Below, piece after piece: positions 5,765 to 32,716 of a stretch of 64,000 bases of DNA. Position numbers and translations under genes: made by a program. How positions within the stretch are numbered: the first letter of the stretch is position 1; each line of letters begins with the position of its first letter. Where the stretch lies: contig CAIKAW010000006.1 of the NCBI GenBank assembly GCA_903825575.1, positions 34,168 through 98,167 of the forward strand, given 5' to 3'. The stretch is from an uncultured bacterium (GTDB taxonomy: Bacteria; Actinomycetota; Actinomycetes; S36-B12; CAIKAW01). The notes beneath the pieces are model-generated. The model saw only the letters and a list, made by a program, of their open reading frames with translations. It did no database searches and had not been told where the DNA came from.

Positions 5765-5782
5765 CGGGATGGATTGCGTTAC

Positions 5783-6592: not shown

Positions 6593-6648
6593 GCCCTACG
6601 CAGCGGGTAGTGTCTCTCGAACTTGCCGGCAACGAATTCAGGTGACTC

Positions 6649-9713: not shown

Positions 9714-9863
9714 GCGTGTTTGGGGGTCACTTAGTGAAACTCCCCTCAAGCAGTAAATCTGGTCGACGTTGGTCGTTGCGCTGATCGATCTCTAGTGGGA
9801 TAAAGGTCGCGGTGCCAGATCACTTACACGATCTGCGTGAATGAAACCTCGAGAGGGACGGCG

Positions 9864-11564: not shown

Positions 11565-11591
11565 ATCAAGAAGCAAGTAGCCTTAGCCAGC

Positions 11592-12548: not shown

Positions 12549-13387
12549 CTAGTGATGTCCTTCGTCGTGAAGCGAGCCCAGGCCAAGCTGCCAAAGATTG
12601 CAATGTAGCCCAGTTGCAGAGCTGACCAGGTAAGCAGCGTCCCAAAATTGATTTGCAGCCGAAGTAGTTCGCCGAATCCGAGCCAATTGTGAGTGAAAAG
12701 CCACTGTCTCGACGCGCCCAATTGGGGAACGGCGTCCAACACTTCGACGATGATCGTGACGGCAACGGTGGCCGCCATGGCCGCGATAGGACCTTCCGTG
12801 AGGGTGGAGATGAACAATCCAAGGGCAACCAAGCCGGTTAGGGCGAAGGTCACGTAAGCGATGACACCCAAAGTTCGGAGCACACCGGAACCGACTGAGA
12901 CCGTGTCTCCCGACAGCAGGGTGAGTGGGTGAATCCCAAACAAGATGGCCCCGGTGATCAGGCCAGATACGGCAACCATCGCCAAGGCAGCGGCGCTATA
13001 CGCAAGAACGGCCAAGGCCTTGACGGCCAGCAGCCTGCCCCGGCCCACAGGCACCGTGAGCAGGTATCTGAGGGTCCCTATGTTGGCTTCGCCGGCGATG
13101 CTGTCCCCGGCAACTACTCCGATTGCAAGTGGAAGAAACAAAGGTAGGCAAACGCTGAGTGCGGTGTAGACCAGAAATAGGCCGTTGCCGGTCACCTGCC
13201 CTAGGAAGTCTGGGCCAGCGCCAGGCGGCGGTGCTGAAACCTTCACGGCGATGCCAATGAGCGCCGGCGGCCCGGCCAGTACCGCGAGCAGGGCCTGGTT
13301 CCTTCGGCGTCGAAAGACCAGTGCCAACTCACTGCGGATTAGACGGCCGAGATGGCCTGGTTGCGTTGCCGGTTCAACTAGCGACAT
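12545..13387 (-). CDS. ABC-2 type transporter permease
   Basis: 280 aa with about 6 TM segments. Overlaps the upstream ATPase gene by 14 nt. Confidence 0.75.
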   Translation of the reverse strand: MSLVEPATQPGHLGRLIRSELALVFRRRRNQALLAVLAGPPALIGIAVKVSAPPPGAGPDFLGQVTGNGLFLVYTALSVCLPLFLPLAIGVVAGDSIAGEANIGTLRYLLTVPVGRGRLLAVKALAVLAYSAAALAMVAVSGLITGAILFGIHPLTLLSGDTVSVGSGVLRTLGVIAYVTFALTGLVALGLFISTLTEGPIAAMAATVAVTIIVEVLDAVPQLGASRQWLFTHNWLGFGELLRLQINFGTLLTWSALQLGYIAIFGSLAWARFTTKDITS

Positions 13388-14339
13388 CGAAACCCTCGCC
13401 GGTAAGGCTGACGAAAAGATCTTCGAGAGCAGGCCGGGTCTGGGAAATACCTAGAACTGGAACGTCCGCGTTGACCAGGGCCCGGGTGATTTCGTCAACC
13501 CCGTGGCCGCACATGTTGGCCGTAACCGTCCCCTTGCCTAGGCCGGCTAGAACGTCCGAAAGCCCCAGCCTCGAGAGCACATGTTGCGCCGGGCCCGTAG
13601 CGTTTGTGAACAACAGCAAGCGGGGTTCGGCGCCGGCGAGAACTTCAGTCAAGGTTCCTTGGGAGATCAGCCTTCCGGCGCTCATGATGCCCACATGGGT
13701 GGCCACCTGTTCGACCTCGGCCAGCAGGTGGCTCGACACCAAGATGGTCGCGCCGTCTGCGGCGAGGGAGCGAATTAGGTGGCGCACTTCGCGCGTGCCT
13801 TGCGGGTCAAGGCCATTTGTCGGTTCGTCCAAGATCAACAACTTCCGGGGTTGCAACAGCGCGGCGGCGATCCCCAAGCGTTGCTTCATTCCCAGCGAGT
13901 ACTGCCGGTAACGCTTCGAGGCCGCAGCGGAAAGGCCGACTCGGCTCAAGGATTCGGCTATGCGTTCGGAGCTGCTGTGCGGATTAGCTGTTCGATCAGC
14001 GGCGTCAAGGCGTCGTAGGTTATCGGCGCCCGTGAGATAGGGGTGAAATGCCGGACCTTCAATGAGCGCGCCTACGCTCGGCAATACGAGGGCAGCTGAG
14101 CGAGGCATCGCGGAACCAAGGAGGTGAATGCTGCCCTCGTGCGCTGAAATCAGTCCGAGCAACATGCGGATGGTTGTTGTCTTGCCGGAACCATTTGGAC
14201 CAAGAAAGCCGTAAACCGCTCCAACTGGTACCCGCAAACTGACTTGGTCCACAGCTACTTGGTGGCCGAATCGACGAGTTAGACCCTCGCTAGCAACTGC
14301 TAGCGCACCGCCCCCGATATCCGGTACGCCTTGGGTCAC
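13374..14339 (-). CDS. ABC transporter ATP-binding protein (ABC-2 / DrrA-like)
   Basis: Walker A GPNGSGKTT, signature YSLGMKQRL, Walker B LLILDEPTNGLD. Confidence 0.9.
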   Translation of the reverse strand: MTQGVPDIGGGALAVASEGLTRRFGHQVAVDQVSLRVPVGAVYGFLGPNGSGKTTTIRMLLGLISAHEGSIHLLGSAMPRSAALVLPSVGALIEGPAFHPYLTGADNLRRLDAADRTANPHSSSERIAESLSRVGLSAAASKRYRQYSLGMKQRLGIAAALLQPRKLLILDEPTNGLDPQGTREVRHLIRSLAADGATILVSSHLLAEVEQVATHVGIMSAGRLISQGTLTEVLAGAEPRLLLFTNATGPAQHVLSRLGLSDVLAGLGKGTVTANMCGHGVDEITRALVNADVPVLGISQTRPALEDLFVSLTGEGFDVAS

Positions 14340-15447
14340 AGGCCACGACCGCTGGCAGCAACTTGCTGCAGCGATGCTGGGGAAACTGCGCCCACGTAAA
14401 GCCGCCCATCAGATGTAAGGAGAGCCGAGAACAACGAGGTGCTCAGAATCCGCCCTTCCGGGACGCTGGTGGCGACGCGATTGACTAGGTCAAGCAAAGA
14501 AGCGCCAGGGCCGCCGCTGGTGGTGTTGGGCATGGCCACTTGCGTGGCAGCGAACACGGCTGTCCAACCAGTGCCAAGAAAGTTCGGTGATCCCGAAGGA
14601 GCGCTGGCGCCCGATGGCGCGGCGCCCAGCCCGCTCGAGTGCGTCGGGACATGACCTTCGGTCAGTTGCGCGCCCGCCGGAGTCTGAAAATCGAAAGTGG
14701 CGGCGGAAGGTGCTGCGAAGTCGATGGAGGTGAAACCGGTTTCGAAGGCGGGAGCGCCACCGTTTCGGCCGAAGATCTCTACCCGCAACGGCAAATTAGT
14801 GGTGCCATCAATCGCAATCGTGATGCGCCCGATCAAGGTGCGACTATCGCGCGGAGTCAGAACCAGTTGGTAGACGCCTCGATTGGCTACCCATTCGGTC
14901 GAGTCAACGCTGACCTGGGTCGACGGATCCAATCCGGACACAAGTTGATTGGCAACGGTTATTGGGTCAAGGATCGGATTGGCGGCTTGCGTTTGGTCAG
15001 CGGCCATCCGTGGGGTCAAGGCGCCTAGCTCATAGTGCGTCACAGCATTTGTCGCAGATCGATAAATCCAAAGGTCTGGTCCCGAGCGGATGATGTCGCT
15101 CTCGGAGAGTTGGCCCAGGACTGCTATTCGCTGGTGGGTCGGTCCGTCGATCCAGATTCGCAAGGTGTGGGACCCGGTCAGCGCGCTGGCGAGATCCAAG
15201 GACGATGCAGTGCGACCGTCGGACGGCAGTTCCGGCAGCCCTAGTCGGGCAGTTTCGACAATAGTTCCCGAAAGCACGTCCGTCTGTGCAGTGGCAATTG
15301 CTGCCAAAAGTGCCTGGGGAGTCCGAGGTGGCAGCCCCGGATGTCCGGCCCCACTGGCAACACCCGGCAGTATCGCGATACCGGCCGTCGCCACCAGTGC
15401 TCCGGTGGGGACTGCCCATTGCCACTTAACCCTGCTTGCCCAGGCCA
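14336..15447 (-). CDS. Secreted LolA/RseB-like (outer-membrane lipoprotein carrier fold) protein
   Basis: The C-terminal ~370 codons of the 614-aa track ORF. GTG at 15447 gives a signal-like N-terminus, VAWASRVKWQWAVPTGALVATAGIAILPGVASGA. The remaining upstream part is antisense to the histidine kinase. The start codon is uncertain. Confidence 0.55.
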
Positions 15448-15583
15448 CAAAACCATTATGCGCTCGACTTCCCGAAGCCGCATTTACGAATACAATTCGT
15501 GTCCAAACGGTTGCGCTTGGTAGGTTCCTCGCCGGTAACCTTGACCTGAGGGGTACCTGAGAGGAATAGGCGGGTGAGTCGCG

Positions 15584-17509
15584 GTGGCGAGGACTGTGCC
15601 CGGGCACTCCGACGCGACCCTGACCGCTGCAGCCCGCTGGACGCCTTCCCGGTATGAAGCCCTTGTGGCGGCGGCGTTGGACGCAATCGTCATCATCGAC
15701 AGTGACGGCCGGGTCATCGAGTTCAACCCTGCCGCTGAGGCCCTTTTCGGGTACAGCCACGACGATGTAGTCGGGCAACAGATGGAGAACCTGATCGTGC
15801 CCGAGCGTCTCCGCCATGCGCACAATGGCGGCATCGCGCGTTACCTTGCCACCGGAGAGGGTCCGGCGCTGAACCGTCGTGTGGAAGTGCCAGCAATCCG
15901 GGCCGATGGCACCGAAATCATCGTCGAACTCATTGCAATTCCCCTTGAGACAGACGGTCGCGTCGAGTTCGCCGCATTCCTGCGCGACTTGACCGAAGTT
16001 CGTCGGGCGAACGAATCGGTGGCCCGGTCGGAAGAGCGCTATCGGACGCTGATCAATCGGGCCCAACAAAGCATCTCCATTCTTGATGCCGATGGAAACT
16101 GGGTAACGTCGACCGGGTCGGCATTCCTTGGACATCCGGCAGGCTTCGACCCGCCTGGTGGCATCTTCGCGCTTATCCACGCAGACGATCGCGAACGCGC
16201 CCTTAGTGCCTTTGCCAATGTGGTGGCGGGGAGCCGAGCCCCTGACGAGATAAGCGACTTCCGAGTGCGCAATAGCGACGGCGAATACCGGACTTGCGCG
16301 GTCTCGGGGGAGAACTTGCTGGCTGATCCAAGTATCGAGGGGGTTGTCCTTCGAGCTTGGGACGTAACCGAGGAACGGGCTCGCGAATCGTTACTACGTA
16401 TGGTCAACGCACAACTTCGCACGGTCATAGGTGTATTGCCGCTAGCGGTCATGGTCGAGGACGCCCAGGATCGGGTCGCAATGGTCAACGAGCTCTTCGT
16501 CAAATTGATGAAATGGGACGGGTCGCCCGATGACTTGGTTGGCACAGACCTGCATGGGCCGTCTGTGTGGCCGGTGCACCTGTTTGAGGATCCGGTTGAG
16601 TATGCCCGCAGAGCACAGCAGCTTCACGATGAGCGCAACCGAGGAACAGACGAAATTAAGATGCTGGACGGTCGGGTCTTTCGACGAGACTGCATTCCGA
16701 TCGAAGTTGAGGGCTCGTTCGCCGGGTTACTTTGGATGTATCGCGAAGAGACCGAAGAATTCAACTACATGGCCGCGTTGGCAGAACAAAACCGGGCGTT
16801 AGAACAGTTGACCCGACTGAAGAACGAGTTTGTGGCGACGGTGTCTCATGAACTTCGCACGCCCTTGACTTCGGTGATCAGCTTCGGCGGGTTGCTGCGC
16901 GAACCAGAGGTCGGCGAGTTGAACGAGGAACAGAGTGGGTTGCTGGACGTCATCGATCGCAATGCCCAGCGACTCCTGCGCCTCATCGGCGACCTGCTGC
17001 TCCTGGCCAAACTCGAGTCGAACTCCCTATCCATCGAATTGGAGACTCTTGACCTGCCGACCATCGTGCTACACGCGGTCGCGGAAGTTGCACCCTCGGC
17101 GCGCCTGGGCGACGTCCTCGTAAGTGAGGAAATCGGGCTTGGCCCGCGATATGTAGGGGACGCAGTGCGACTGCATCAGGTGATGAACAATCTGTTAGAT
17201 AACGCCGTGAAGTTCACCCCAGCGGGGGGCAACGTGCGGGTTCATTTGAGCTCGGATCCGCAGGCTTGGACTCTGACAGTCGCCGATAGCGGGATCGGTA
17301 TTCCTGCAGGAGAACAACACCGGGTCTTCACAAGCTTCTACCGGGGATCAAACACTCGAGATCGCAAGGCGCCCGGCACTGGGCTGGGTTTGGCGATCAC
17401 CAAGGTGATCGTTGAACTCCACGGGGGTAGCATCAGCGTCGCAAGTGAGCAGGGGGTCGGCACGACCATGACCGTCATCCTTCCAATCAGGGCAGGGGGA
17501 GCGTCTTAG
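15584..17509 (+). CDS. Soluble PAS-domain sensor histidine kinase (three PAS-like modules, HisKA, HATPase_c)
   Basis: 641 aa with no TM segment. H-box VSHELRTPLTSV, N-box NLLDNAVKFTP and G-boxes DSGIGIP / GTGLGLAI. Confidence 0.9.
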   Translation: MARTVPGHSDATLTAAARWTPSRYEALVAAALDAIVIIDSDGRVIEFNPAAEALFGYSHDDVVGQQMENLIVPERLRHAHNGGIARYLATGEGPALNRRVEVPAIRADGTEIIVELIAIPLETDGRVEFAAFLRDLTEVRRANESVARSEERYRTLINRAQQSISILDADGNWVTSTGSAFLGHPAGFDPPGGIFALIHADDRERALSAFANVVAGSRAPDEISDFRVRNSDGEYRTCAVSGENLLADPSIEGVVLRAWDVTEERARESLLRMVNAQLRTVIGVLPLAVMVEDAQDRVAMVNELFVKLMKWDGSPDDLVGTDLHGPSVWPVHLFEDPVEYARRAQQLHDERNRGTDEIKMLDGRVFRRDCIPIEVEGSFAGLLWMYREETEEFNYMAALAEQNRALEQLTRLKNEFVATVSHELRTPLTSVISFGGLLREPEVGELNEEQSGLLDVIDRNAQRLLRLIGDLLLLAKLESNSLSIELETLDLPTIVLHAVAEVAPSARLGDVLVSEEIGLGPRYVGDAVRLHQVMNNLLDNAVKFTPAGGNVRVHLSSDPQAWTLTVADSGIGIPAGEQHRVFTSFYRGSNTRDRKAPGTGLGLAITKVIVELHGGSISVASEQGVGTTMTVILPIRAGGAS

Positions 17510-18201
17510 TGACCAAGATCCTTGTGGTCGAAGATGAGCCCGACATCTTCCAGGCCGTGCAAGCGATTCTGCAGCGACGCAATTTCGAGGTTGTAATGGC
17601 GGAAGACGGCCCGACCGCGTTACGACTGTTCTACGACATTCGACCCGACTTGATCATTCTTGATTTGGGACTTCCGGTGGTCGACGGTTGGCATGTGCTT
17701 TCTCGAATCCGTGATTTTGCCAACGTGCCGGTTATCATTCTGACGGCCGCTGGCCGCGATGAAGACAAGGTGCGAGGCTTGCGTTCTGGGGCCGATGACT
17801 ATCTGACCAAGCCGTTCTCCAATTCCGAATTGGTGGCTCGGGTGGAGGCATTGCTTCGACGCGCTGGAGACCCGCATTGGACCCAGCCGGAATTTGGCGA
17901 TGGCCAGTTGGTCATTTCGCCCGGTCGTCGGACCGTCACGGTAGACGGATTAGATGTGGCTCTGACGCCATTGGAGTTTCGGCTGCTATCAGTTTTGGTT
18001 CGAAACGCAGGCCAACTTCTCGGAGTTGAGCAGTTGCTTTCGCTGGTCTGGGAGGATTCCAGCGGTATTGGAGCCGAGCGTGTGAAGTACACAATCTTGA
18101 GACTACGACGCAAACTTGGTTGGGATGACCCCTCGTCGTCACCGATTGAGTCTGTTCGCGGTGCTGGCTATCGCTACAAATCGGTCCGAAGCGGCAGCTG
18201 A
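17509..18201 (+). CDS. OmpR/PhoB-family response regulator
   Basis: 230 aa. Receiver domain (KILVVEDEPD, LIILDLGLP, LTKPF) plus a winged-helix C-terminus (LTPLEFRLLSVL...VRGAGYRY). Its GTG overlaps the kinase TAG by 1 nt. Confidence 0.9.
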   Translation: MTKILVVEDEPDIFQAVQAILQRRNFEVVMAEDGPTALRLFYDIRPDLIILDLGLPVVDGWHVLSRIRDFANVPVIILTAAGRDEDKVRGLRSGADDYLTKPFSNSELVARVEALLRRAGDPHWTQPEFGDGQLVISPGRRTVTVDGLDVALTPLEFRLLSVLVRNAGQLLGVEQLLSLVWEDSSGIGAERVKYTILRLRRKLGWDDPSSSPIESVRGAGYRYKSVRSGS

Positions 18202-19262
18202 TGTCCAATAATCAGGACCTTGAACGGATCGCACGCATTCTGGTCGTGGAAGACGACGATGACCAGCGGACGTACCTCATGCATGTGCTTCGCCGCCTTG
18301 GCAACCTTGAACCGATCGGCGTCGGCGACCCTGAATCAGCGCTGGAACTGTTAGCAAATGAACACTGGGATCTACTCATAACCGACCTGATCTTGCCTGG
18401 ACGCAACGGGTTGAATCTGGCCGATGAGGCTCAGGAACACCACGGCGGTCTTCCGGTAATTGTCGTGACTGCGCACCCATCGTTTGAGACTGCGGTCGAA
18501 GCGGTGCGGGCCGGCGTCAGCGATTTCCTAGTCAAGCCCCTCGATGCTGACCGCCTGCTGGCTGCCGTTGACCGGGCGCTATCGGGTTTTCACCGAGTAA
18601 CTTCGCGGGTCCTTGCTATTGGCGCTCATCCAGACGACGTCGAACTCGGTTGCGGTGGGGCTTTGGCTCTACATCGAATCCACGGTGACGAGATAACGAT
18701 CTTGACGATGAGCCAAGGCGCTGAAACCCCGGACCTTGAACATCGGCTCAAGCAAGCTGCGCTGTCCGCGCAGCGACTGGGAGCCACCCTGATCATGCAC
18801 ACTCTTCGGGAAACGATGATCGCGGAGTCACCAACGGTAGATGAACTAATCGCCGCTGCGATCAGTGAGATCCGCCCAGACACGGTTTACGTGCACACAC
18901 CCCAAGACGTTGTAACCGACCACCGAGCTGTGAATGCAAGCACCCGCCGGGTGGCCCGAGCTGTGCCTAGATTGCTTTGCTATCAATCGCCTTCCTCGAC
19001 TGTGGATTTTCACCCGGTTGAGTTCATCGGAATCGATAATGGACTCGATTCGAAGCTAGGCGCATTGGGAGCATTCTTGGAAGCGGCCCCAGACCGCGAA
19101 TACCTGTCGCCTGAAATGGTTCGCGCAACAGCACGCTACTGGGGGCGGTTCGCGTCGGCGAAGTACGCCGAGCCATTTGAGGTAGTGCGGGACCGATTGG
19201 ACCGTCGTACGGATCGACTGGATTTGCCCGTCGGGCGTCCCACTCGCGCCGGGCGCGGCTGA
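18201..19262 (+). CDS. Response-regulator receiver domain fused to a PIG-L/LmbE-family deacetylase domain
   Basis: 353 aa. The N-terminus has ILVVEDDDD, DLLITDLILPG, VIVVTAH and FLVKP. The C-terminus has VLAIGAHPDDVELGCGG and a later TDH. Its ATG overlaps the upstream TGA (TGATG). Confidence 0.8.
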   Translation: MSNNQDLERIARILVVEDDDDQRTYLMHVLRRLGNLEPIGVGDPESALELLANEHWDLLITDLILPGRNGLNLADEAQEHHGGLPVIVVTAHPSFETAVEAVRAGVSDFLVKPLDADRLLAAVDRALSGFHRVTSRVLAIGAHPDDVELGCGGALALHRIHGDEITILTMSQGAETPDLEHRLKQAALSAQRLGATLIMHTLRETMIAESPTVDELIAAAISEIRPDTVYVHTPQDVVTDHRAVNASTRRVARAVPRLLCYQSPSSTVDFHPVEFIGIDNGLDSKLGALGAFLEAAPDREYLSPEMVRATARYWGRFASAKYAEPFEVVRDRLDRRTDRLDLPVGRPTRAGRG

Positions 19263-19277
19263 AACGAGCTAACCAGA

Positions 19278-21011
19278 GTGTTGCTCCGATTGCTTGGGCC
19301 AAGACTTCGGCCTTACCGAGGGACCGTCGTCGTGATTGTTTCTCTGCTGCTGCTCCAAGCGATCGGGAACCTCTACCTGCCGACGCTTAACGCAGACCTG
19401 ATAAACAACGGTGTTATCCGCAGCGACCTGGCCTATGTTTGGCGTGCGGGACAGCAAATGCTGCTGGTTGTTATAGCTATTGCGGTTGTCTCATTCGCCG
19501 GAGTCTGGCTCTCCTCACGCGTTGCGATGGCGGTGGGACGGGATTTGCGTAAGGAGGTTTTCGACTCCGTACTCGATTTTGCAGAAGACGAATTCGCCAA
19601 TTTCGGTAGCGCTTCGTTGATCACCCGCAACACGAACGACGTCCAACAGATTCTCAATTTCGTACAGGTTGCCCTAACCGTCATGGTGCTTGCGCCGATC
19701 CAAGCAATTGGTGGGATCTTCATGGCGATGCGCCAAGATTTGCGACTCTCGACTCTATTGGCCGTGGCGGTCCCACTATTGGCCGTAGTAATTGGCGTTG
19801 TTATGGCGCGAGCGGTGCCACTGTTTCGAACACTCCAGGTCAGGATTGATGCAGTCAATCGGGTCCTGCGAGAGCAGATTACGGGTATTCGAGTCATCCG
19901 AGCTTTCGCGCGGGAAGACTTCGAGACGCAGCGCTTCGAGAAGGTCAATCGAGATTTGACGAGCAATGCCCTCGGGGTGAATCGACTGTTTGTCGTTGCG
20001 ATGCCGGCCATGATGCTGATTCTCAACATCTCGACGGTGTCTGTGATCTGGTTCGGTGGGCACCTCGTTGAGCGAGGTCAATTGCAGATTGGAACCCTCT
20101 CCGCCTTCCTCAGTTACATCATGCAGATTCTGGTATCTGTGCTGATGGCTGTAATGGTCATCATTCTCGTCCCGCGTGCGAGTGCTAGTGCAGAGCGGAT
20201 TGCGGCGGTCCTGGCCGTAGTCCCGAGCATCAGTGACCCCGTCAACGCTGTGGTTCCTGGGCAACCGAGAGGAGGGGTGGAATTCCGGTCGGTCTCGTAC
20301 AGGTATCCGGGTGCGGCAGACGCTGTGGTTGCCGACATTTCATTGCTGATTGAAGCCGGATGTTTTACGGCGATAGTCGGGTCAACCGGATCCGGGAAGA
20401 CGACCCTGCTGAACTTGATTCCGCGGCTGACTGATGCTTCGACTGGTTTGGTGCTAGTGGACGGGATTGACGTCCGCCAACAAGGACGCAATGCCTTGTG
20501 GTTCGGGATTGGTCTGGTGCCACAGCGGCCGTACCTATTTGCCGGCACCGTAGCCGACAACGTACGGCTAGGCGCCGACTCGGCTTCCGACGAAGATGTT
20601 TGGTGGGCTCTGGAGGTGGCTCAGGCGCGGGATTTTGTGGTTGAACTCCCTGGCCAACTTCAGGCCAACGTCTCCCAAGGTGGGGGTAACTTTTCCGGCG
20701 GCCAGCGCCAGCGGCTAGCCATCGCCAGAGCGGTCGTTCGTCGACCGCGGCTATACCTGTTCGACGATAGTTTCGCTTCGTTAGATGCCCAAACCGATGC
20801 GAATTTGCGCGCTGCGTTGCTTCGGGAATTATCGGGTTCGACAGTTGTCGTAGTGGCTCAGCGAATCAGCACCATCCTTGATGCCGACCGAATTGTCGTA
20901 CTTGAGGCGGGTCGGGTAGTTGGGGTTGGAACGCACGGTGAGTTGCTCGAGTTGTCGGCGGTTTATCAGGAGATTGTTGTCTCACAACTGGGTCCGGTGG
21001 CAAGGTCATGA
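19278..21011 (+). CDS. ABC exporter, fused permease/ATPase (half-transporter 1)
   Basis: 577 aa. Six-TM exporter domain, Walker A GSTGSGKTT, signature FSGGQRQRLAIARA and Walker B LYLFDDSFASLD. Confidence 0.9.
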   Translation: MLLRLLGPRLRPYRGTVVVIVSLLLLQAIGNLYLPTLNADLINNGVIRSDLAYVWRAGQQMLLVVIAIAVVSFAGVWLSSRVAMAVGRDLRKEVFDSVLDFAEDEFANFGSASLITRNTNDVQQILNFVQVALTVMVLAPIQAIGGIFMAMRQDLRLSTLLAVAVPLLAVVIGVVMARAVPLFRTLQVRIDAVNRVLREQITGIRVIRAFAREDFETQRFEKVNRDLTSNALGVNRLFVVAMPAMMLILNISTVSVIWFGGHLVERGQLQIGTLSAFLSYIMQILVSVLMAVMVIILVPRASASAERIAAVLAVVPSISDPVNAVVPGQPRGGVEFRSVSYRYPGAADAVVADISLLIEAGCFTAIVGSTGSGKTTLLNLIPRLTDASTGLVLVDGIDVRQQGRNALWFGIGLVPQRPYLFAGTVADNVRLGADSASDEDVWWALEVAQARDFVVELPGQLQANVSQGGGNFSGGQRQRLAIARAVVRRPRLYLFDDSFASLDAQTDANLRAALLRELSGSTVVVVAQRISTILDADRIVVLEAGRVVGVGTHGELLELSAVYQEIVVSQLGPVARS

Positions 21012-22975
21012 GCGGGTTCGGCGGAGGGCAACGGGGTCCTGGACCTGGTGGTCGTGGGCCGATGGGTGGAGGCCCAATGGGCCCTCCGGGAGCCGCTACC
21101 GCACCAAGGCTGGTCTTGCGCCAACTCCTTGGAAACCTCAAGGTGGAGCGACCGGTAATGCTGGCGGCGCTCGCCTTGAATGCCGTTGGGGTGCTCTTGA
21201 CCATCAGCGGACCGCGGTTGCTCGGCCACGCGACCAATATCGTCTTTGAGGGAATCGTCGGCAAGCGGTTGCCGACCGGTATGTCTAAGAGTCAGGTGCT
21301 TGCACACCTGAGGGCTACCGGTCAGGGAAGACTTGCTGATCTGCTTGGCCCGATGAACGTGATACCGGGCGCAGGGGTGAATTGGTCGGCATTCCGTACG
21401 TCGATTGTCGTGGTGTTAGCTGCCTACTTGCTCGGCTCGGTCTTCAGTTGGGCGCAGGGCTACTTGTTGGCCGGGGTCGCACAACGCACCGTCGCCAAAC
21501 TTCGAACCGATGTGGAGACAAAGATTCATCGAGTGCCGCTGTCCTACCTCGACAGTCAAGAGCGCGGCGAACTGCTCTCCCGCGTTACCAACGACATCGA
21601 CAACATTGGCACCACCTTGCAGCAGGGGATGGGGCAACTGCTCAATTCAGTCCTGACAATCATTGGCGTCATCGGGCTGATGTTCTGGATCAGTCCGCTA
21701 CTAGCCGCTATTTCCTTGCTAGTGCTGCCGGCTTCGGGATTGGTCACTTGGTTGATCGCGCGGCGGTCGCAGCGCGAGTTCTCTGACCAATGGGCGAGAA
21801 CCGGTCGACTCAACGCCCACGTCGAAGGCGTTCACAGCGGGCATACGATCATTCAAGTTTTCGGGGCAACGCAACACGCCAAAGCCGCCTTCGACGAGCA
21901 AAACCAGGCCCTGTACCACGCGAGTTTCCGTGCCCAAGTGCTTTCCGGGATTGTCCAACCGGCGATGGGTTTCATTGGCTACCTGCACTTCGTCGCCATC
22001 GCCGTCATTGGCGGTTATCGCGTCGCGGCCGGTGGCCTGCTCTTAGGTGACCTTCAAGCTTTCATCCAGTATTCGAGGACGTTCACCATGCCGATCACTC
22101 AGATCGCGTCGCAACTAAACCTGCTGCAATCTGGTCTGGCTTCGGCGGAGCGAGTCTTTGACCTACTGGATGCACCAGAAGAAGTGGAGTTGGAAGGGGC
22201 ACCTGAAATCGAGCTGTCTAACCTTGGCCAGATCTCATTCGACGGTGTGGACTTCGCGTATCGGGAAGCCGAGCCGGTCATCACCGGACTAGATCTGGTG
22301 ATTGAGCGAGGCCAAACGATCGCCATCGTTGGGCCGACGGGAGCCGGTAAGACGACACTCGTCAATTTGCTGCTGCGCTTCTATGACGTCTCGGCCGGAT
22401 CGATTCGGATCGATGGAATAGACATCAGGACTCTTCCGCGCAAGCAATTGCGACAGATTTACGCCATGGTGCTGCAGGAAACTTGGCTATTTGCTGGAAC
22501 CATCCGGGAGAACGTTGCCTATGGGCGGCTCGGAGCGAGCGATGCGGAGATATTGGACGCGTGCAGAGCCGCCCGGGTCGATCGCTTTGTCCGAACCCTT
22601 CCAGCTGGCCTAGACACCGTAATAGACGAGTCGGCCGAGAACATCTCATCCGGCGAGAAGCAACTAATCACGATTGCTCGGGCTTTCCTTGCAGACCCCA
22701 GCGTTCTGATCCTGGACGAAGCGACCAGCAATGTTGATACCCGAACCGAAGTGGTGATTCAGGAGGCAATGTCGCAGTTAAGGCATGGCCGGACAAGTTT
22801 CGTGATTGCCCACCGACTCTCGACGATCAGAGGTGCGGACCTGATCGTTGTGCTTGACCACGGCCGGGTTGTGGAGGCCGGTCGCCACGAAGAGCTTCTC
22901 TTGGCCGAGGGGGCATACCACCGCTTGTACGCCCGTCAATTCAGTGGCAGCCGAGATTCAGCCGACTGGCTGTAA
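21008..22975 (+). CDS. ABC exporter, fused permease/ATPase (half-transporter 2) with a Gly/Pro-rich N-terminal extension
   Basis: 655 aa. Walker A GPTGAGKTT, signature SSGEKQLITIARA and Walker B ILDEATSNVD. ATGA overlap with the upstream gene. N-terminus is MSGFGGGQRGPGPGGRGPMGGGPMGPPGAATAP. Confidence 0.9.
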   Translation: MSGFGGGQRGPGPGGRGPMGGGPMGPPGAATAPRLVLRQLLGNLKVERPVMLAALALNAVGVLLTISGPRLLGHATNIVFEGIVGKRLPTGMSKSQVLAHLRATGQGRLADLLGPMNVIPGAGVNWSAFRTSIVVVLAAYLLGSVFSWAQGYLLAGVAQRTVAKLRTDVETKIHRVPLSYLDSQERGELLSRVTNDIDNIGTTLQQGMGQLLNSVLTIIGVIGLMFWISPLLAAISLLVLPASGLVTWLIARRSQREFSDQWARTGRLNAHVEGVHSGHTIIQVFGATQHAKAAFDEQNQALYHASFRAQVLSGIVQPAMGFIGYLHFVAIAVIGGYRVAAGGLLLGDLQAFIQYSRTFTMPITQIASQLNLLQSGLASAERVFDLLDAPEEVELEGAPEIELSNLGQISFDGVDFAYREAEPVITGLDLVIERGQTIAIVGPTGAGKTTLVNLLLRFYDVSAGSIRIDGIDIRTLPRKQLRQIYAMVLQETWLFAGTIRENVAYGRLGASDAEILDACRAARVDRFVRTLPAGLDTVIDESAENISSGEKQLITIARAFLADPSVLILDEATSNVDTRTEVVIQEAMSQLRHGRTSFVIAHRLSTIRGADLIVVLDHGRVVEAGRHEELLLAEGAYHRLYARQFSGSRDSADWL

Positions 22976-23093
22976 GAGTCACCCAGACGGCTGAATATCT
23001 CTGGTGGGGACCATGACTCGGGGTTTACCGCCCCTTAACGCCGGCCGATCTAACCTTCGTATTGACAGTTTCCAACTAGCTGGGGGTTCCAAA

Positions 23094-23954
23094 GTGACAT
23101 CATTCGTTCGCCGGGCGGCCATTGCCGCCGTAACCACGACTGCCGTGGTGGCGCTAGGGATGGCTGCTCCAGCCGTCGCTTCTGCTTCCACCGGCCATTC
23201 GGCCATCCACAAGATTGCCGCCCACCACGCTCCGGTCGCCCTTACCGCTGACCAGCAGACATTGGTTAGCGCCTTGGCGGCTGACAAAGCTGCAGCGAAG
23301 ACCGCGATCAAGGCTGCAAAGCAAGCTTTCAACGCAGATGCCGCAGTGGTGGCTGCTAAGGCCGCCCGCGACGCGGCATTTGCAGCAGCCGTCAGCCAGT
23401 CGGACTTCCTGACCGCATTGCAGGCGTACGACGCTGCCACCTCCGCTGCGGCAGCCACCCGTGACGCCGCAATCCAGGCAGCCAAGGACGCCCAGTGGGC
23501 GGCCGATGACGCTGCTTTCGTGGTCTACGACACCGCGACCACACCGGCTACCCAAGCCGATCGTGAGACGTACAGGCAGGCCGTGCACGCGGCTGACCTA
23601 GCCAAAGCTGTAGCTAACGCCGCCGCCAAGGCCACCTTCCGGACCAACACGCTGGGCGCAAAAGCTCAGTTGCTGGCCGACATGAAGGCCGCAGCCGGCG
23701 ATGACACAGCAATGGATGCAGCTGAGGCTGCTTTCCGCACCGCCACCGCAGCCGACCGCGCCACGCTGAAGGCAGCGTTGGCCGCCGACTGTGCGACCGC
23801 CAAGGCTGCTAAGGACGCTGCCGTTGCGGCGTACGAGGCCAGCACCGGCGAAACCTCGGCCCCGACGTACCCGTTCCTGCGTCATGGGCATGGGCATGGG
23901 CATGGCCATGGCCATGGGCACGGTCATGGTCACGGTCACGGTCACGGTCACTGA
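23094..23954 (+). CDS. Secreted alanine-rich protein with a C-terminal (His-Gly)n tail
   Basis: GTG at 23094 is preceded by ctggggg and gives a Sec-type signal, VTSFVRRAAIAAVTTTAVVALGMAAPAVA|SAS. The track start at 23004 is an alternative. The body is Ala/Lys/Asp-rich and predicted helical. It ends RHGHGHGHGHGHGHGHGHGHGHGH. Confidence 0.7.
   Translation: MTSFVRRAAIAAVTTTAVVALGMAAPAVASASTGHSAIHKIAAHHAPVALTADQQTLVSALAADKAAAKTAIKAAKQAFNADAAVVAAKAARDAAFAAAVSQSDFLTALQAYDAATSAAAATRDAAIQAAKDAQWAADDAAFVVYDTATTPATQADRETYRQAVHAADLAKAVANAAAKATFRTNTLGAKAQLLADMKAAAGDDTAMDAAEAAFRTATAADRATLKAALAADCATAKAAKDAAVAAYEASTGETSAPTYPFLRHGHGHGHGHGHGHGHGHGHGHGH
23883..23951 (+). repeat. Coding dipeptide repeat: 23 residues of alternating His-Gly (12 His, 11 Gly)
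   Basis: cat ggg cat ggg cat ggg cat ggc cat ggc cat ggg cac ggt cat ggt cac ggt cac ggt cac ggt cac, followed by TGA. Synonymous codons vary along the repeat. Confidence 0.95.
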
Positions 23955-23966
23955 GATATAGCAAGG

Positions 23967-23998
23967 CAAGGGCCCCAGCCGTTCGGCTGGGGCCCTTG
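23967..23998. terminator. Putative bidirectional intrinsic terminator hairpin (14-bp perfect stem, GTTC loop)
   Basis: caagggccccagcc-gttc-ggctggggcccttg lies between convergent genes ending at 23954 (+) and 24058 (-). There is no clear U-tract on either side. Confidence 0.65.
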
Positions 23999-24057
23999 CG
24001 TATTGGCTTGTCCCGGAGCCTATTCCGCCGGGTCAGGCCTGAGTCGTAGGCGCGAAG

Positions 24058-24276
24058 TCAGCGCACAGTTTCGGGGTCGTTGAGCAGGCGGTCCGATTCA
24101 TCGACGATGTCGGCGGCAATCCCGGCCAGCGCATCTGCATGCTCACGAGCGTGGTGAGCGCAGAAAAGCAGTTCGCCGCCCGAGGTCAACTTGACCAGGA
24201 CATAGGCCTGCGCGCCACAGCGGTCGCAGCGATCAGCGGCCGTAAGTGGCGTCGTAGGCGTCAACGTCGAGGTCAT
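24058..24276 (-). CDS. Small conserved actinobacterial zinc-ribbon-like protein (DUF7455-like)
   Basis: 72 aa from the ATG preceded by GGAGGGG; the track TTG start at 24288 is less likely. Contains CDRCGAQAY...FCAHHAREH. Divergent from the topoisomerase subunit B gene. Confidence 0.65.
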   Translation of the reverse strand: MTSTLTPTTPLTAADRCDRCGAQAYVLVKLTSGGELLFCAHHAREHADALAGIAADIVDESDRLLNDPETVR

Positions 24277-24542
24277 TTGCCCCTCCAAAGTAGGTATCCG
24301 TACAACATCCTTGCACCTGCTGGTTGTTCCCGATCCCAGATTTGGCTTTGGTTCGCTCTTGGCGCAGCAATTGGTGGGCTGAGCCTATGCATTTGGCGTC
24401 TGGAGTAGGGGTTGTGCTGTCGGCGTGTCGCAGGGCGCGCCGTGAACTCGCGCAGTGGGGGCGGACAACTAGGCTCACTCATAAGCCGATCGCCCCAGCA
24501 CCGGCGGCGCGAAATGGATTCAGGTCCCCCTAGGAGCAAAGC

Positions 24543-26645
24543 TTGGCTAGCCGCCGCGAGAGTTCCGAGAACCGCCCGCCAGCTGGCGCTGGTGGTTTAT
24601 CGGGTGCATACACGGCCAAGCAATTGGCCGTACTTGAAGGTCTGGATGCGGTTCGTAAGCGCCCGGGCATGTACATCGGATCTACCGACAGCCGAGGTTT
24701 GATGCACTGCGTTTGGGAGATCATCGACAACGCGGTCGATGAAGCCCTGGCGGGTCATTGCACCCGAATCATCGTTGTACTGCACCCCGACCGGTCCGTC
24801 GAGGTGCAAGACAACGGCCGGGGCATTCCCGTCGATATTGAGCCAAAGACCAAGCTAACCGGGGTCGAAGTCGTGCTAACCAAGTTGCACGCTGGCGGCA
24901 AGTTTGGAGGTGGCTCCTACGCGGCTTCCGGGGGACTGCACGGGGTGGGTGCCAGTGTCGTCAACGCCTTGTCTGAGCGCTTAGACGTGGAGGTTGATCG
25001 CGACGGGAAGATCTATGCGATGTCTTTTCGCCGCGGTGTGCCCGGGGTCTTTGAAGAGCCCACGCCTGATTCGGCTTTCTCCAAGGCTGGCGGCTTGCGG
25101 GTGGTCGGCAAGGTCATCCGGAAGAACACTGGTACCAGGGTTCGTTTTTGGCCGGATCGGCAATTGTTCACGTCGGATGCCGAGGTGTCCTACGAGGACC
25201 TTTCGGCGCGGGCTCGACAGACTTCGTACCTCGTGCCTGGCTTGATCCTCGAGCTTCGCGACGAGCGCTCTGGACCGGTCGAGCCGGAGGTTTTTGAGCA
25301 TCGGGGTGGAATTGGTGAATTCGTCGATTTCATGTGTGTCGACGAAGCCGTAACTAGCACGATTCGCCTGCGCGGGGTAGGGCACTTCAAAGAAACGGTG
25401 CCCGTGCTCGACGGCAAGGGACATCTGACCTCGCAAGAAGTTGAACGCGAACTGGCGGTGGATATAGCACTGCGCTGGGGTGTTGGATACGACACCGACG
25501 TTCGGTCCTTCGTGAACATCATTGCAACACCTAAGGGCGGCACACACCTAGTTGGATTTGAAAGAGCGCTCGTCAAGGTGCTCAATGACGGACTTCGGGC
25601 AGCCAAGGTGCTTCGTGCGGGGGAAGACAACGTCGCCAAAGAAGATGCTATGGAAGGTCTGGCCGCGGTTGTCACTGTGCGCCTGCCGGAACCGCAGTTT
25701 GAAGGACAGACCAAGGAAGTTCTCGGCACTCCGGCCGCGGCGCGGATCGTGGCGCATGTGGTCACAAAAGAGTTGACTGCCTATCTCGAATCCCCTCCCC
25801 GTGGCGAGAAGGTTTCGGCCCGTGCCTTACTGGACAAAGTGGCCAACGCGTCGCGCACTCGGCTGGCCGCGCGTGCTCACCGTGATGTTCAGCGACGCAA
25901 AACGGCGCTGGAATCATCGGCGTTGCCGACCAAACTCAAGGACTGCCGAAGCGACGAAACCGAACGCTGCGAGTTATTCATTGTTGAGGGCGATAGCGCC
26001 CTTGGTACCGCCAAGAACGCTCGAAATTCGGAGTTCCAGGCGATCTTGCCAATTCGCGGAAAGATCCTGAACGTTCAGAAGGCCTCGATCGCCGACATGC
26101 TTAAGAACACAGAGTGTGCCTCGATCATTCAGGTGATCGGGGCCGGTTCTGGCCGCTCATTTGACCTTACCCAAGCCCGTTACGGCAAGATCATTCTGAT
26201 GTCCGACGCAGACGTTGACGGTGCGCATATTCGTTGCCTGCTGCTTACGCTGGTTCACCGTTACTTGCGGCCGCTTCTAGACGACGGGCGGATCTACGCG
26301 GCGGTTCCACCGTTGCACCGGGTTGAGACAACTGGCGGGAAGGCCGCCGAGATTCGGTACACGTACTCCGACGCAGAGTTGCGCAAGTTGCTCGCCGAGT
26401 TAGACAAGGCGGGGCGACGTTACAAGGAGCCGCAGCGGTACAAGGGCCTGGGCGAGATGGATGCTGACCAGTTGCGGGACACGACCATGTCGCCGAGTTC
26501 GCGAACCCTGCGCCGGATCACGATGGCTGACGCGGAAGCTGCCGAATCCGTGTTCGAACTACTGATGGGGAGCGACGTGCCTCCGCGCAAGGAGTTCATC
26601 GTTGCGGGGGCGCTTGGGCTGACCAGGGACCGGATTGACGCCTGA
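24543..26645 (+). CDS. parE: Type IIA DNA topoisomerase subunit B (topoisomerase IV ParE-like)
   Basis: 700 aa. TTG start with AGGAG 6 nt upstream. GHKL ATPase motifs (VRKRPGMYIGST, EIIDNAVDE, GGLHGVGASVVNALS). Toprim motifs (ELFIVEGDSA, ILMSDADVDGAHI). Not adjacent to its A subunit. Confidence 0.9.
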   Translation: MASRRESSENRPPAGAGGLSGAYTAKQLAVLEGLDAVRKRPGMYIGSTDSRGLMHCVWEIIDNAVDEALAGHCTRIIVVLHPDRSVEVQDNGRGIPVDIEPKTKLTGVEVVLTKLHAGGKFGGGSYAASGGLHGVGASVVNALSERLDVEVDRDGKIYAMSFRRGVPGVFEEPTPDSAFSKAGGLRVVGKVIRKNTGTRVRFWPDRQLFTSDAEVSYEDLSARARQTSYLVPGLILELRDERSGPVEPEVFEHRGGIGEFVDFMCVDEAVTSTIRLRGVGHFKETVPVLDGKGHLTSQEVERELAVDIALRWGVGYDTDVRSFVNIIATPKGGTHLVGFERALVKVLNDGLRAAKVLRAGEDNVAKEDAMEGLAAVVTVRLPEPQFEGQTKEVLGTPAAARIVAHVVTKELTAYLESPPRGEKVSARALLDKVANASRTRLAARAHRDVQRRKTALESSALPTKLKDCRSDETERCELFIVEGDSALGTAKNARNSEFQAILPIRGKILNVQKASIADMLKNTECASIIQVIGAGSGRSFDLTQARYGKIILMSDADVDGAHIRCLLLTLVHRYLRPLLDDGRIYAAVPPLHRVETTGGKAAEIRYTYSDAELRKLLAELDKAGRRYKEPQRYKGLGEMDADQLRDTTMSPSSRTLRRITMADAEAAESVFELLMGSDVPPRKEFIVAGALGLTRDRIDA

Positions 26646-26661
26646 GAAGTAGACTGCCAGC

Positions 26662-27789: not shown

Positions 27790-27893
27790 GTCGAATATCA
27801 CAAGGCTCGGGACCAGGGTCCCTGCCCAGGGGCGGCTATGACCGGGCATTATCTGTTGCGGAGCGAACCTCAGATCGAAAATCAGGAGTTGCA

Positions 27894-29249: not shown

Positions 29250-29265
29250 GTGTGGTTAGTGGGAT

Positions 29266-32672: not shown

Positions 32673-32716
32673 TTCACTCCTGGACTACGACTGGGCGAAG
32701 TCCTATTCTCGCCGCC

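Follow-up and report, generated by a model that had tools for sequence, protein, structure and literature searches.

The 64,000-nt stretch of DNA analyzed here (the window) harbors five genes encoding a sensor kinase, an OmpR-type regulator, a receiver domain fused to a PIG-L deacetylase domain (REC-PIG-L), and two half-ABC transporters (ABC1 and ABC2). This arrangement raises the question of whether one cytoplasmic signal controls transcription, deacetylation, and the export of the deacetylation product, as a sequence-only reading had proposed. The evidence favors, with moderate confidence, a lineage-specific juxtaposition of a conserved trio (kinase, regulator, and REC-PIG-L) and an accessory pump of known type over an integrated deacetylate-and-export system.

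The same-strand arrangement, coordinates, and junctions reported earlier are all confirmed by the ORFs and by direct reading of the sequence (Table 1). The kinase and regulator genes overlap by 1 nt at 17509 (TAGTG), as do the regulator and REC-PIG-L genes at 18201 (TGATG). REC-PIG-L and ABC1 are joined by TGA, 15 nt, and GTG (19262/19278), and ABC1 and ABC2 overlap by 4 nt at 21008 (ATGA). Public gene calls on the same DNA place the ABC starts later (559 and 632 aa), leaving gaps of 69 and 65 nt. However, ABC homologs with 59–60% identity are 576–577 and 651–658 aa long, align with 100% query coverage, and have the identical 4-nt overlap; the long forms and tight junctions are therefore accepted. 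A minus-strand ORF (14336–16180) overlaps the kinase gene only on paper. Its real start lies near 15448 (the gene call in relatives is 370 aa), and thus a 135-nt divergent intergenic region remains, which presumably holds the promoter of the five genes. A sigma-70 consensus scan gave no match in this region, such a consensus being uninformative for a high-GC actinobacterium. The physical packing is operon-like, as claimed, and the ABC pair is probably co-transcribed with the trio, which would place it under the promoter of the latter.

Table 1. Features of the five-gene locus and of the haplotype comparison, in window coordinates
Feature	Position	Strand	Basis
Sensor kinase gene	15584-17509	+	641 aa ORF
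OmpR-type regulator gene	17509-18201	+	230 aa ORF
REC-PIG-L gene	18201-19262	+	353 aa ORF
ABC1 half-transporter gene	19278-21011	+	577 aa ORF
ABC2 half-transporter gene	21008-22975	+	655 aa ORF
Divergent intergenic region, LolA-like/ABC-2 operon (minus) versus kinase gene	15449..15583	.	ORF limits
ABC-pair segment, 3659 nt, replaced by 52 nt in sister haplotype	19254..22912	+	blastn L081-L084 vs window
Last 63 nt of ABC2 coding sequence, non-coding in ABC-less relatives	22913..22975	+	blastn, sequence
Raised-divergence block, ABC-plus versus ABC-minus haplotypes	15400..24200	.	400-nt sliding identity

Pfam also confirms the proposed domains of the kinase, regulator, REC-PIG-L, and half-transporters, with every domain assigned to the five proteins exceeding the curated cut-offs. 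The kinase (PAS, HisKA, and HATPase_c in Pfam) is built from three PAS-like modules (about residues 20–142, 148–268, and 272–398), a HisKA domain with the H-box SHELRTP, and HATPase_c; residues 271–634 give a PnpS-like match in NCBIfam. Two of the three PAS modules originally described pass the Pfam threshold. The third (about 272–398) falls below it (PAS_8, 18.4 bits; PAS_4, 16.7 bits) but is recovered against PAS1 by profile–profile comparison, with profiles built from seven orthologous kinases (95% probability, E = 4e-8), and hhalign backs PAS2 and PAS3. The cytoplasmic assignment of the kinase holds, as no transmembrane segment is present (maximum 19-residue Kyte–Doolittle mean of 1.58). 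The regulator belongs to the OmpR/PhoB family and has a Response_reg and a winged-helix Trans_reg_C domain (Pfam; NCBIfam).

The third gene product harbors an NtrC-like receiver (about residues 11–130; Response_reg in Pfam) fused to a PIG-L/LmbE-fold metallo-deacetylase domain (about 135–333; PIG-L in Pfam). Response regulators with enzymatic outputs include the methylesterase CheB, the diguanylate cyclase PleD, and the phosphodiesterase PorX. REC-PIG-L shares with these the fusion of a receiver to a catalytic domain, and its receiver active-site residues are complete (D18, D19, D62, T90, and K112); it differs from them in that its output is a PIG-L deacetylase domain. Literature searches found no description of this combination and no characterization of the architecture. 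PleD and PorX are weak, low-TM full-length matches (TMq 0.32–0.33, rmsd 14–26 Å), and the fold search returned no full-length solved-structure match. The top Foldseek matches of the AlphaFold2 model (pLDDT 90.2) are BshB (6P2T, E = 3.9e-13), TT1542, and BC1534.

The fold is shared with the LmbE-like/PIG-L deacetylases BshB, MshB, TT1542, and diacetylchitobiose deacetylase, as are the AHPDD motif and the second histidine of HxDH; unlike these enzymes, the window protein has a fused N-terminal receiver domain. The metal ligands H143, D146, and H241 and the catalytic base D145 are all retained, as is R182. In contrast, the surrounding pocket is remodeled, with V238 where 118 of 121 family members have histidine, E204 where 119 of 121 have aspartate, and the further lineage-specific changes G176T/G177P and E185Q. 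Position 238 aligns with the substrate-binding residue H144 of MshB (H110 in BshB), the alanine variant of which retains ≤1% activity; the residue matching MshB D95 is a glutamate in the window protein (PMC4101496). Purifying selection on REC-PIG-L is nonetheless strong, whether or not the haplotype carries the pump (dN/dS 0.025 between the two haplotypes), and the PIG-L domain alone (0.034) is as tight as the receiver. Despite its remodeled pocket, the protein probably remains functional with a changed or different substrate. Distant family members have lost metal-site residues (H143R in 17, D145G in 28, and H241R in 15 of 151 representatives), and thus pseudo-enzyme evolution occurs in this family.

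REC-PIG-L proteins form a populated family of about 187 clusters at 50% identity. Gene neighborhoods were surveyed by crude ORF calling and tblastn at 58 independent loci picked by sequence similarity. The typical REC-PIG-L gene heads a cassette encoding an ATP-grasp ligase (52/58), a PHP phosphoesterase (44/58), a PgaC/IcaA-like membrane glycosyltransferase (GT2, 44/58), and an ORF of about 55 aa, almost always immediately downstream and on the same strand. The hosts include Microbacteriaceae, Cellulomonas, Streptosporangiaceae, Thermoleophilia, and Legionella, among others. The GT2 is closest to PgaC/IcaA with an NCBIfam score of 128.6 bits, which is below the curated cut-off, and BcsA-type cellulose synthases are among its PDB matches.

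A kinase lies within 5 kb of REC-PIG-L at 37 loci, and an OmpR-type regulator is also present at only 5–7 of the 58; the branched trio thus characterizes a sub-clade rather than the whole family. Two loci, L087 and L090, have the kinase, regulator, and REC-PIG-L genes in the order of the window (45/63/49% and 44/63/47% identity, respectively), the kinases aligning over 93% of their length, while L089, L027, and L033 carry rearranged or variant trios. The trio-bearing relatives outside the window's lineage belong to other actinobacterial lineages and have the ATP-grasp gene downstream, usually together with the PHP and GT2 genes. This recurrence makes one kinase acting on two receivers a plausible conserved design, and synteny thus backs that part of the original proposal. 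Conservation of gene order, the test that the original proposal set for itself, extends to the trio and stops at the ABC pair, as no ABC1 or ABC2 homolog was found within 5 kb of REC-PIG-L at any of the 58 loci. The window protein aligns with family members over its full length (41–49% identity), and the nearest of these share its upstream kinase and regulator; the window differs in lacking the three biosynthetic genes, in having the ABC pair downstream, and in its diverged pocket. Neither tblastn nor profile HMMs (E ≤ 1) detected a cassette gene in the 64 kb. The cassette might be located elsewhere in the genome, in which case a "loss of pathway" would be the wrong description.

Both transporter genes encode ABC_membrane and ABC_tran domains. 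By far their best solved-structure matches are mycobacterial Rv1273c/Rv1272c (PDB 8WCW, 9IQE, and 9KWI), tandem half-transporters in the same order and with the same 4-nt gene overlap, orthology being judged from scores and motifs. ABC1 is the counterpart of Rv1273c (8WCW chain A, E = 3.9e-162) and ABC2 that of Rv1272c (chain B, E = 2.3e-196), with TM287/288 ranking far behind. The proposed heterodimer of two half-transporters is supported. ABC1 provides the Walker A/B half of a degenerate ATP site, in which the Walker B motif LYLFD is followed by aspartate instead of glutamate and the switch residue is a glutamine (VAQR). MsRv1273c has the same substitutions (D497 and Q528; PMC12038006). ABC2 provides the Walker A/B half of the consensus site (ILDE, with the switch histidine in IAHR) and, like the second mycobacterial subunit, is canonical except for its signature motif, here ISSGE (PMC12038006). 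Its ABC_membrane match (residues 53–362) is about 310 residues long, whereas the profile has 274 positions, and the domain may carry an insert between TM1 and TM2. The MsRv1273c/72c transporter has been assigned to isoniazid efflux (PMC12038006), an assignment in conflict with the copper uptake reported for this type (PMC13202654). Neither paper was found to link it to a two-component system, whereas the window pair lies in a putative operon behind one. In L094 and L095, a MarR gene overlaps and precedes the homologous pair; other pairs elsewhere stand alone as a two-gene unit.

The pump is also variable among close relatives. The five-gene order is stable, with the ABC pair present, in at least eight contigs of the window's own haplotype, while the nearest relatives (97% amino acid identity in REC-PIG-L) keep the whole trio and lack the pair. 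Four sister contigs (L081–L084) are 98–99% identical to the window in the flanks but lack the 3.66 kb that holds the pump; their alignment stops at 19253 and restarts at 22913, with shared breakpoints (blastn; sequence read). In L081, the remnant of the ABC2 3′ end reads ...AAYHRLYARQFSGSRDSADWL followed by a stop in frame 1. This decayed remnant is evidence for loss of the ABC pair in the sister haplotype, and the linkage is therefore ancestral for the window's small lineage. Within the raised-divergence block, nucleotide identity per 400-nt window is 87–97% versus a background of 98–99.5%, and dS between haplotypes reaches 0.22 (kinase), 0.39 (regulator), and 0.54 (REC-PIG-L), compared with 0.02–0.05 for flanking genes.

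These observations bear differently on the possible roles of the pump. An integrated pathway, in which a cytoplasmic signal drives transcription and deacetylation and the ABC heterodimer secretes the deacetylated product itself or something derived from it, is consistent with the tight junctions (just 15 nt separate REC-PIG-L from ABC1), the order kept within the haplotype, and the ancestral linkage. It is made improbable by the lack of a comparable exporter within 5 kb of the 58 other REC-PIG-L genes, the continued constraint on REC-PIG-L where the pump was lost, the unrelated neighbors of ABC homologs (a MarR gene or nothing), and the assignment of the characterized family member to isoniazid efflux and copper uptake rather than glycoconjugate export (PMC12038006, PMC13202654). 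On these grounds, and with the pair missing in the closest relatives, the suggestion that it exports the deacetylation product is not upheld. A regulator swap is doubtful but deserves more weight: in this haplotype the two-component system, through its OmpR-type regulator, would replace MarR, and the pump would be induced by stress, drug, or metal through autoregulated read-through, leaving REC-PIG-L a bystander to the pump. The MarR-preceded pairs show a portable two-gene module that gains local regulators, and the pump is packed operon-like behind two-component genes. Conversely, the sigma-70 scan gave no promoter, no binding site was identified, and sister genomes drop the pump yet keep the whole trio, which places the main role of the latter elsewhere; this explanation overlaps the favored juxtaposition more than it contradicts it.

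A separate proposal concerns the enzyme itself. REC-PIG-L could have ceased to be an enzyme in the window's lineage, adjusting instead, as a scaffold or phosphate sink, the phosphoryl flow between the kinase and the OmpR-type regulator. The loss of the near-invariant histidine at position 238, D204E and the other pocket changes, the absence of partner biosynthetic genes from the window, and the pseudo-enzymes elsewhere in the family point in this direction. The intact metal ligands, catalytic base, and R182, as well as a PIG-L domain more constrained than a mere sink seems to require, argue against it, and this role is considered unlikely.

Under the favored juxtaposition, the locus would comprise two modules that differ in origin and evolutionary stability. 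In module 1 (15584–19262), the cytoplasmic kinase would autophosphorylate on an intracellular cue and act as phosphodonor for both the OmpR-type transcription factor and REC-PIG-L, whose phosphorylated receiver is proposed to gate a zinc-dependent LmbE/PIG-L-fold de-N-acetylase. Because REC-PIG-L heads the cassette in other lineages, its ancestral job was most likely to remove, under signal control, the N-acetyl group from a GlcNAc-bearing intermediate of glycan or glycoconjugate synthesis. In the window's lineage, where the cassette is missing from the 64 kb, the remodeled yet constrained protein is a putative deacetylase and, judging from the selection acting across both haplotypes, is probably functional without the pump. 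Module 2 (19278–22975) would be a heterodimeric ABC transporter of the Rv1273c/Rv1272c type with one degenerate ATP site, an accessory passenger rather than a functional partner of the deacetylase, given its absence from sister genomes and from the 58 other REC-PIG-L loci surveyed, although a lineage-specific functional link to the trio would be compatible with the gap of only 15 nt and with the pair having been present ancestrally in this lineage. The REC-PIG-L trio would thus represent an uncharacterized enzyme-output signaling module, and the pump a known type.

The genes for a PAS histidine kinase, an OmpR-type regulator, a receiver fused to a PIG-L/LmbE deacetylase (REC-PIG-L), and two half-ABC transporters (ABC1 and ABC2) lie in a row, and the positions assigned to them by the sequence-only reading match the six-frame ORF list exactly. 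All four claimed junctions are borne out when the sequence is read, and the claimed domains are recovered by Pfam above curated thresholds for all five proteins, the third PAS module of the kinase aside. Public gene calls on near-identical contigs start both ABC genes later; the long forms are matched end to end by homologues of 59–60% identity that have the same 4-nt overlap. No promoter-like site and four weak terminator-like sites came out of scans of positions 15200–24600; shuffled sequence gave more. Both scans are uninformative for a high-GC actinobacterium, and they neither support nor split the operon.

Positions of the five genes, their junctions, and neighboring features (window coordinates)
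Feature	Position	Strand	Content
Kinase	15584-17509	+	Pfam PAS, HisKA, HATPase_c
OmpR-type regulator	17509-18201	+	Pfam Response_reg, Trans_reg_C
REC-PIG-L	18201-19262	+	Pfam Response_reg, PIG-L
ABC1	19278-21011	+	Pfam ABC_membrane, ABC_tran
ABC2	21008-22975	+	Pfam ABC_membrane, ABC_tran
Kinase stop/regulator start	17507-17511	+	TAGTG, 1-nt overlap
Regulator/REC-PIG-L junction	18199-18203	+	TGATG, 1-nt overlap
REC-PIG-L/ABC1 junction	19260-19280	+	TGA + 15 nt + GTG
ABC1/ABC2 junction	21008-21011	+	ATGA, 4-nt overlap
Collinear with pump-less haplotype	8199-19253 and 22913-32856		
Segment replaced in pump-less haplotype	between 19253 and 22913		3659 nt, against 52 nt in L081-L084
Raised-divergence block	~15400-24200		87-97% nt identity to L081 (400-nt windows)
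Second divergent block	9000-10200		87-92% nt identity to L081
Divergent operon	12545-15448	-	370-aa secreted protein, ABC ATPase, ABC-2 membrane protein
Gene directly after ABC pair	23094-23954	+	~286-aa protein, apparently secreted
Topoisomerase region	24543-32672		GyrB-like gene (700 aa), then PAS-only protein (375 aa); opposite strand GyrA/topoisomerase IV-like (824 aa)

Together, the kinase and the regulator form an ordinary two-component pair. The kinase harbors HisKA (70.4 bits) and HATPase_c (111.4 bits) domains with an H-box that translates as SHELRTP, and the adjacent gene encodes an OmpR-family protein with Response_reg (100.8 bits) and Trans_reg_C (64 bits) domains. Two of the three PAS modules claimed for the kinase pass Pfam thresholds; the third (residues ~272–398) has too low a Pfam score and is accepted because a profile–profile comparison, based on seven orthologous kinases, matches it to PAS1 with 95% probability (E 4e-8). 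No 19-residue window of the kinase reaches a Kyte–Doolittle mean of 1.6, in agreement with the claimed absence of a transmembrane helix, so that the kinase can fairly be read as soluble.

REC-PIG-L combines a receiver (84.6 bits in Pfam against a cut-off of 30.2) with a PIG-L domain (63.7 bits against 28.2). The receiver has D18, D19, D62, T90, and K112, each conserved in 109–118 of 121 family sequences. The AlphaFold2 model of the protein is confident (pLDDT 90.2, pTM 0.78), and the folds nearest to its C-terminal domain in Foldseek are those of BshB, TT1542, BC1534, and the diacetylchitobiose deacetylase Dac, the top matches having a probability of 1.00 and the best four target-normalised TM-scores of 0.71–0.79. 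Model and Pfam agree on an LmbE-like alpha/beta fold; no solved structure of the full REC-LmbE architecture was matched by Foldseek. The metal ligands H143 and D146 (of the AHPDD motif) and H241 (the second histidine of HxDH) are kept, as is the catalytic base D145. All four are invariant or nearly so across the family, and they fall in the same motifs when the protein is aligned to TT1542 and Dac.

The substrate pocket is a different matter, 14 of the 15 positions that depart from a family consensus of at least 85% being located in the PIG-L domain. The conserved substrate-binding residues listed for MshB are Arg68, Asp95, and His144 (PMC4101496), of which REC-PIG-L has one intact. R182, the equivalent of Arg68, is retained; E204 stands for Asp95 (D204E; Asp in 119 of 121 family sequences), and V238 occupies the position of MshB His144 and BshB His110, the first histidine of HxDH (H238V; His in 118 of 121). 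The H144A variant of MshB has at most 1% activity according to the same LmbE review (PMC4101496). Additional pocket changes in the window's lineage are G176T, G177P, and E185Q. Since the metal ligands and the base are kept, these changes suggest that the substrate is different or the activity lower, and not that the metal site is dead.

About one third of the more distant representatives at 50% identity (P0273–P0391) have lost deacetylase metal ligands or the base; H143R occurs in 17, D145G in 28, and H241R in 15 of 151 representatives in an automatic, uninspected alignment. This suggests a pseudo-enzyme branch within the family, to which the window's copy would not belong. Separately, a Rhodoglobus metagenome-assembled genome (locus L035, ~4728–6873) has tandem REC-PIG-L genes, and its upstream copy harbors an asparagine at the His238 position (NQDH).

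REC-PIG-L proteins are widely annotated in databases, yet uncharacterised as far as could be found: full-text searches of the literature outside subscription journals returned nothing relevant on a characterised REC-LmbE/PIG-L protein or on the genes that usually accompany it. A word-indexed search recovered 1117 relatives at E ≤ 1e-5, with both domains in 120 of the 120 listed, and an exhaustive search of representatives at E ≤ 1e-30 gave about 187 clusters at 50% identity. In GTDB species representatives, at least 558 relatives were confirmed among the first 600 pattern matches. Those listed are mostly from Actinomycetota (Microbacteriaceae, Cellulomonas, Blastococcus, Streptosporangiaceae, Thermoleophilia, and Acidimicrobiia), with a few from Legionella, Lysobacterales, Longimicrobiales, and Polyangiaceae.

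For the neighborhood survey, ORFs were called around the anchor gene, neighbors were clustered, and homologues within 5 kb were counted at 58 independent full-length loci. An ATP-grasp gene is present at 52 of these, PHP and GT2 genes at 44 each, a histidine kinase at 37, and an OmpR-type winged helix at seven; the complete same-strand trio of kinase, regulator, and REC-PIG-L occurs at five. Precomputed Pfam annotation of public contigs gives the order as REC-PIG-L, a PylC-like ATP-grasp protein, PHP, Glyco_transf_21/GT2, and an ORF of ~55 aa (for example, at 9067–12537 of L087, a locus from another lineage in which glmS comes after the cassette; also at most of the loci L085–L090 and L001–L062). 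The top NCBIfam model for the GT2 is PgaC/IcaA, though with a score far under the cut-off, and BcsA-type cellulose synthases are among its PDB matches; the ATP-grasp protein falls into PRK12767, the “carbamoyl phosphate synthase-like” group. Mycothiol and bacillithiol are synthesized through glycosyltransferase, phosphatase, LmbE-deacetylase, and ligase steps, and the cassette recalls a similar logic. No ATP-grasp, PHP, or GT2 gene was detected anywhere in the window by tblastn or by profile HMMs at E ≤ 1.

The trio itself is conserved beyond the window. In L087 and L090, which represent other lineages, REC-PIG-L comes after a PAS kinase (652 aa) and an OmpR-type regulator (227–231 aa) in the same order as in the window, with identities to the window's kinase, regulator, and REC-PIG-L of 45/63/49% and 44/63/47%, respectively. 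Variants of the trio occur in Arachnia (L089), Miltoncostaea (L027), and Mycobacteriales (L033). A full-length homologue of the triple-PAS kinase is found directly upstream of REC-PIG-L without the regulator at three loci (L001, L002, and L009), and a PAS hybrid kinase with an Hpt domain adjoins it at two (L085 and L086). The presence of a PAS kinase beside REC-PIG-L at these loci makes the pairing a recurrent one, and the branched version with an extra OmpR-type regulator is the mark of one sub-clade. The cassette, with no ABC exporter, follows REC-PIG-L at all of these kinase-linked loci. Conservation of gene order therefore holds for the trio in other lineages and fails for the ABC pair, homologues of ABC1 or ABC2 occurring within 5 kb at none of the 58 loci.

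The three genes of the minus-strand operon, which is divergent from the kinase, have homologues 6.5–9 kb upstream of REC-PIG-L in L085 (25%, 51%, and 39% amino acid identity), which hints at an old synteny between the two loci. The secreted protein encoded there gives weak LolA/DUF2092/MucB-like matches. On the other side of the five genes, a 72-aa DUF7455 gene is found upstream of the GyrB-like gene, and the order of genes in this region amounts to a topoisomerase subunit pair interrupted by sensor-domain and other genes.

ABC1 and ABC2 are tandem half-transporters, each with a transmembrane and a nucleotide-binding domain, and by sequence the pair is a member of the known Rv1273c/Rv1272c-type family. 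The top PDB matches are chain A of 8WCW for ABC1 (E 3.9e-162) and chain B for ABC2 (E 2.3e-196), at 544 and 657 bits compared with 442 and 452 bits for TM287/288. The 8WCW structure is that of the Rv1273c/Rv1272c homologue from Mycolicibacterium smegmatis, which has been described as pumping out isoniazid and as having one degenerate nucleotide-binding site (PMC12038006). Copper uptake was assigned to the Mycobacterium tuberculosis pair in a later paper (PMC13202654), so that the published accounts disagree on the physiological substrate. The asymmetry of Rv1273c/Rv1272c (Asp497/Gln528 and Glu553/His584; PMC12038006) recurs in the window's pair. ABC1 has the degenerate site, with LYLFD-D (Asp for the catalytic Glu after Walker B) and VAQR (Gln for the switch His), and ABC2 is canonical in LILD-E and IAHR with a non-canonical signature, ISSGE. 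The ABC_membrane match of ABC2 covers 310 residues against a model of 274 positions, leaving room for an insert after TM1, which might correspond to the extracellular domain of the second subunit in this family. Homologous pairs of 59–60% identity form units of two genes: a MarR gene comes before the pair in L094 and L095, and the pair in L096 is stand-alone.

The pump is accessory even among close relatives. The five-gene form is found on at least eight contigs, three of them 99.7–99.8% identical to the window in DNA, and a sister haplotype with a 97%-identical REC-PIG-L (L081–L084) is collinear on both sides of the pair and lacks the pump. The sister contigs keep the final 63 nt of the ABC2 coding sequence, readable as ...AYHRLYARQFSGSRDSADWL followed by a stop, and this 3′ remnant indicates that the pair was lost there rather than gained in the window's lineage. 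Insertion of the pair by a mobile element was rejected on account of the same remnant, with its recognisable C-terminal peptide, and of the lack of an obvious GC break. When the 52-nt scar was locally aligned with the deleted 3.66 kb, the score was no better than the shuffled mean, and no simple explanation by microhomology or an internal remnant emerged; the 3′ coding remnant alone is clear. Synonymous divergence from L081 is 0.02–0.05 in flanking genes (98–99.5% nucleotide identity) and rises toward the indel, from 0.22 in the kinase to 0.39 in the regulator and 0.54 in REC-PIG-L; divergence peaks beside the ABC indel, which sits in a block of about ten times the genome background in synonymous divergence. 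The two forms are either an old polymorphism or the outcome of recombination that brought one of them in from a more distant relative.

The presence and absence of the pump within one species constitute a natural experiment on its dispensability. Between the haplotypes, the kinase has a dN/dS of 0.07, the regulator of 0.03, and REC-PIG-L of 0.025 (0.012 in the receiver and 0.034 in the PIG-L domain), and such low values indicate that selection keeps the receiver-deacetylase with or without the pump. Given the 0.025 of REC-PIG-L and its intact frame, a decaying pseudogene was rejected. The sequence-only reading had coupled deacetylation to export; the comparative evidence does not support such wiring, and selection on REC-PIG-L regardless of the pump is the strongest argument against an obligatory coupling. 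Taken together, the comparison shows an arrangement best read as a local accident of gene order and not as a new deacetylate-and-export system.

Two further differences between the haplotypes concern other genes. The second divergent block, unrelated to the first, spans the end of a 765-aa ORF (Spermine_synth in relatives) and the start of an amino-acid permease gene. The gene directly after the ABC pair, whose product is without a family match, is fast-evolving (dN/dS 0.21, with indels) and ranges from 290 to 313 aa among contigs.

In the proposed mechanism, a cytoplasmic signal would be sensed by the PAS kinase, which would pass phosphate to both receivers; it is the synteny of the three genes across lineages that speaks for this phosphotransfer. 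The OmpR-type regulator would adjust transcription, its own operon probably being among the targets. Phosphorylation of the REC-PIG-L receiver, which is NtrC-like in its best NCBIfam matches, may gate the deacetylase, as happens in other regulators with an enzyme output. Ancestrally, the enzyme would have taken the N-acetyl group off a GlcNAc-bearing intermediate, and the freed amine could be acylated by the neighboring ATP-grasp ligase in a pathway around the PgaC-like membrane synthase. In the window's lineage this context would be gone, at least locally, and the pump would merely ride on transcription of the operon.

A further-reaching, if rather unlikely, reading is that REC-PIG-L proteins are unstudied phosphorylation-gated de-N-acetylases through which a signal controls a pathway that is widespread, though mostly in actinobacteria, and makes an aminosugar-containing polymer or glycolipid with a PgaC-like synthase, an ATP-grasp ligase, and a PHP phosphoesterase. 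The window's protein would then be a derived member whose pathway has been lost and whose rebuilt pocket (H238V, D204E), being under strong selection, would imply a new substrate, in a species with an old two-haplotype polymorphism for an Rv1273c/72c-type pump. A lineage-specific link between the new substrate and the pump might exist on this reading.

The value of the locus lies in the uncharacterised REC-PIG-L family, its cassette, and the pump haplotypes, and not in the five-gene unit as such. The family should be approached through its conserved cassette with the PgaC-like synthase, for which Leifsonia, Microbacterium, Cellulomonas, or Legionella would serve as culturable hosts. To our knowledge, few response regulators have an enzyme output rather than a DNA-binding domain; CheB, PleD, RpfG, and PorX each revealed a new signaling logic. 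The receiver-deacetylase is a new variant of this type and, if the proposal is true, an LmbE/PIG-L deacetylase gated by its receiver would extend the enzyme-output regulators to the post-translational control of aminosugar metabolism.
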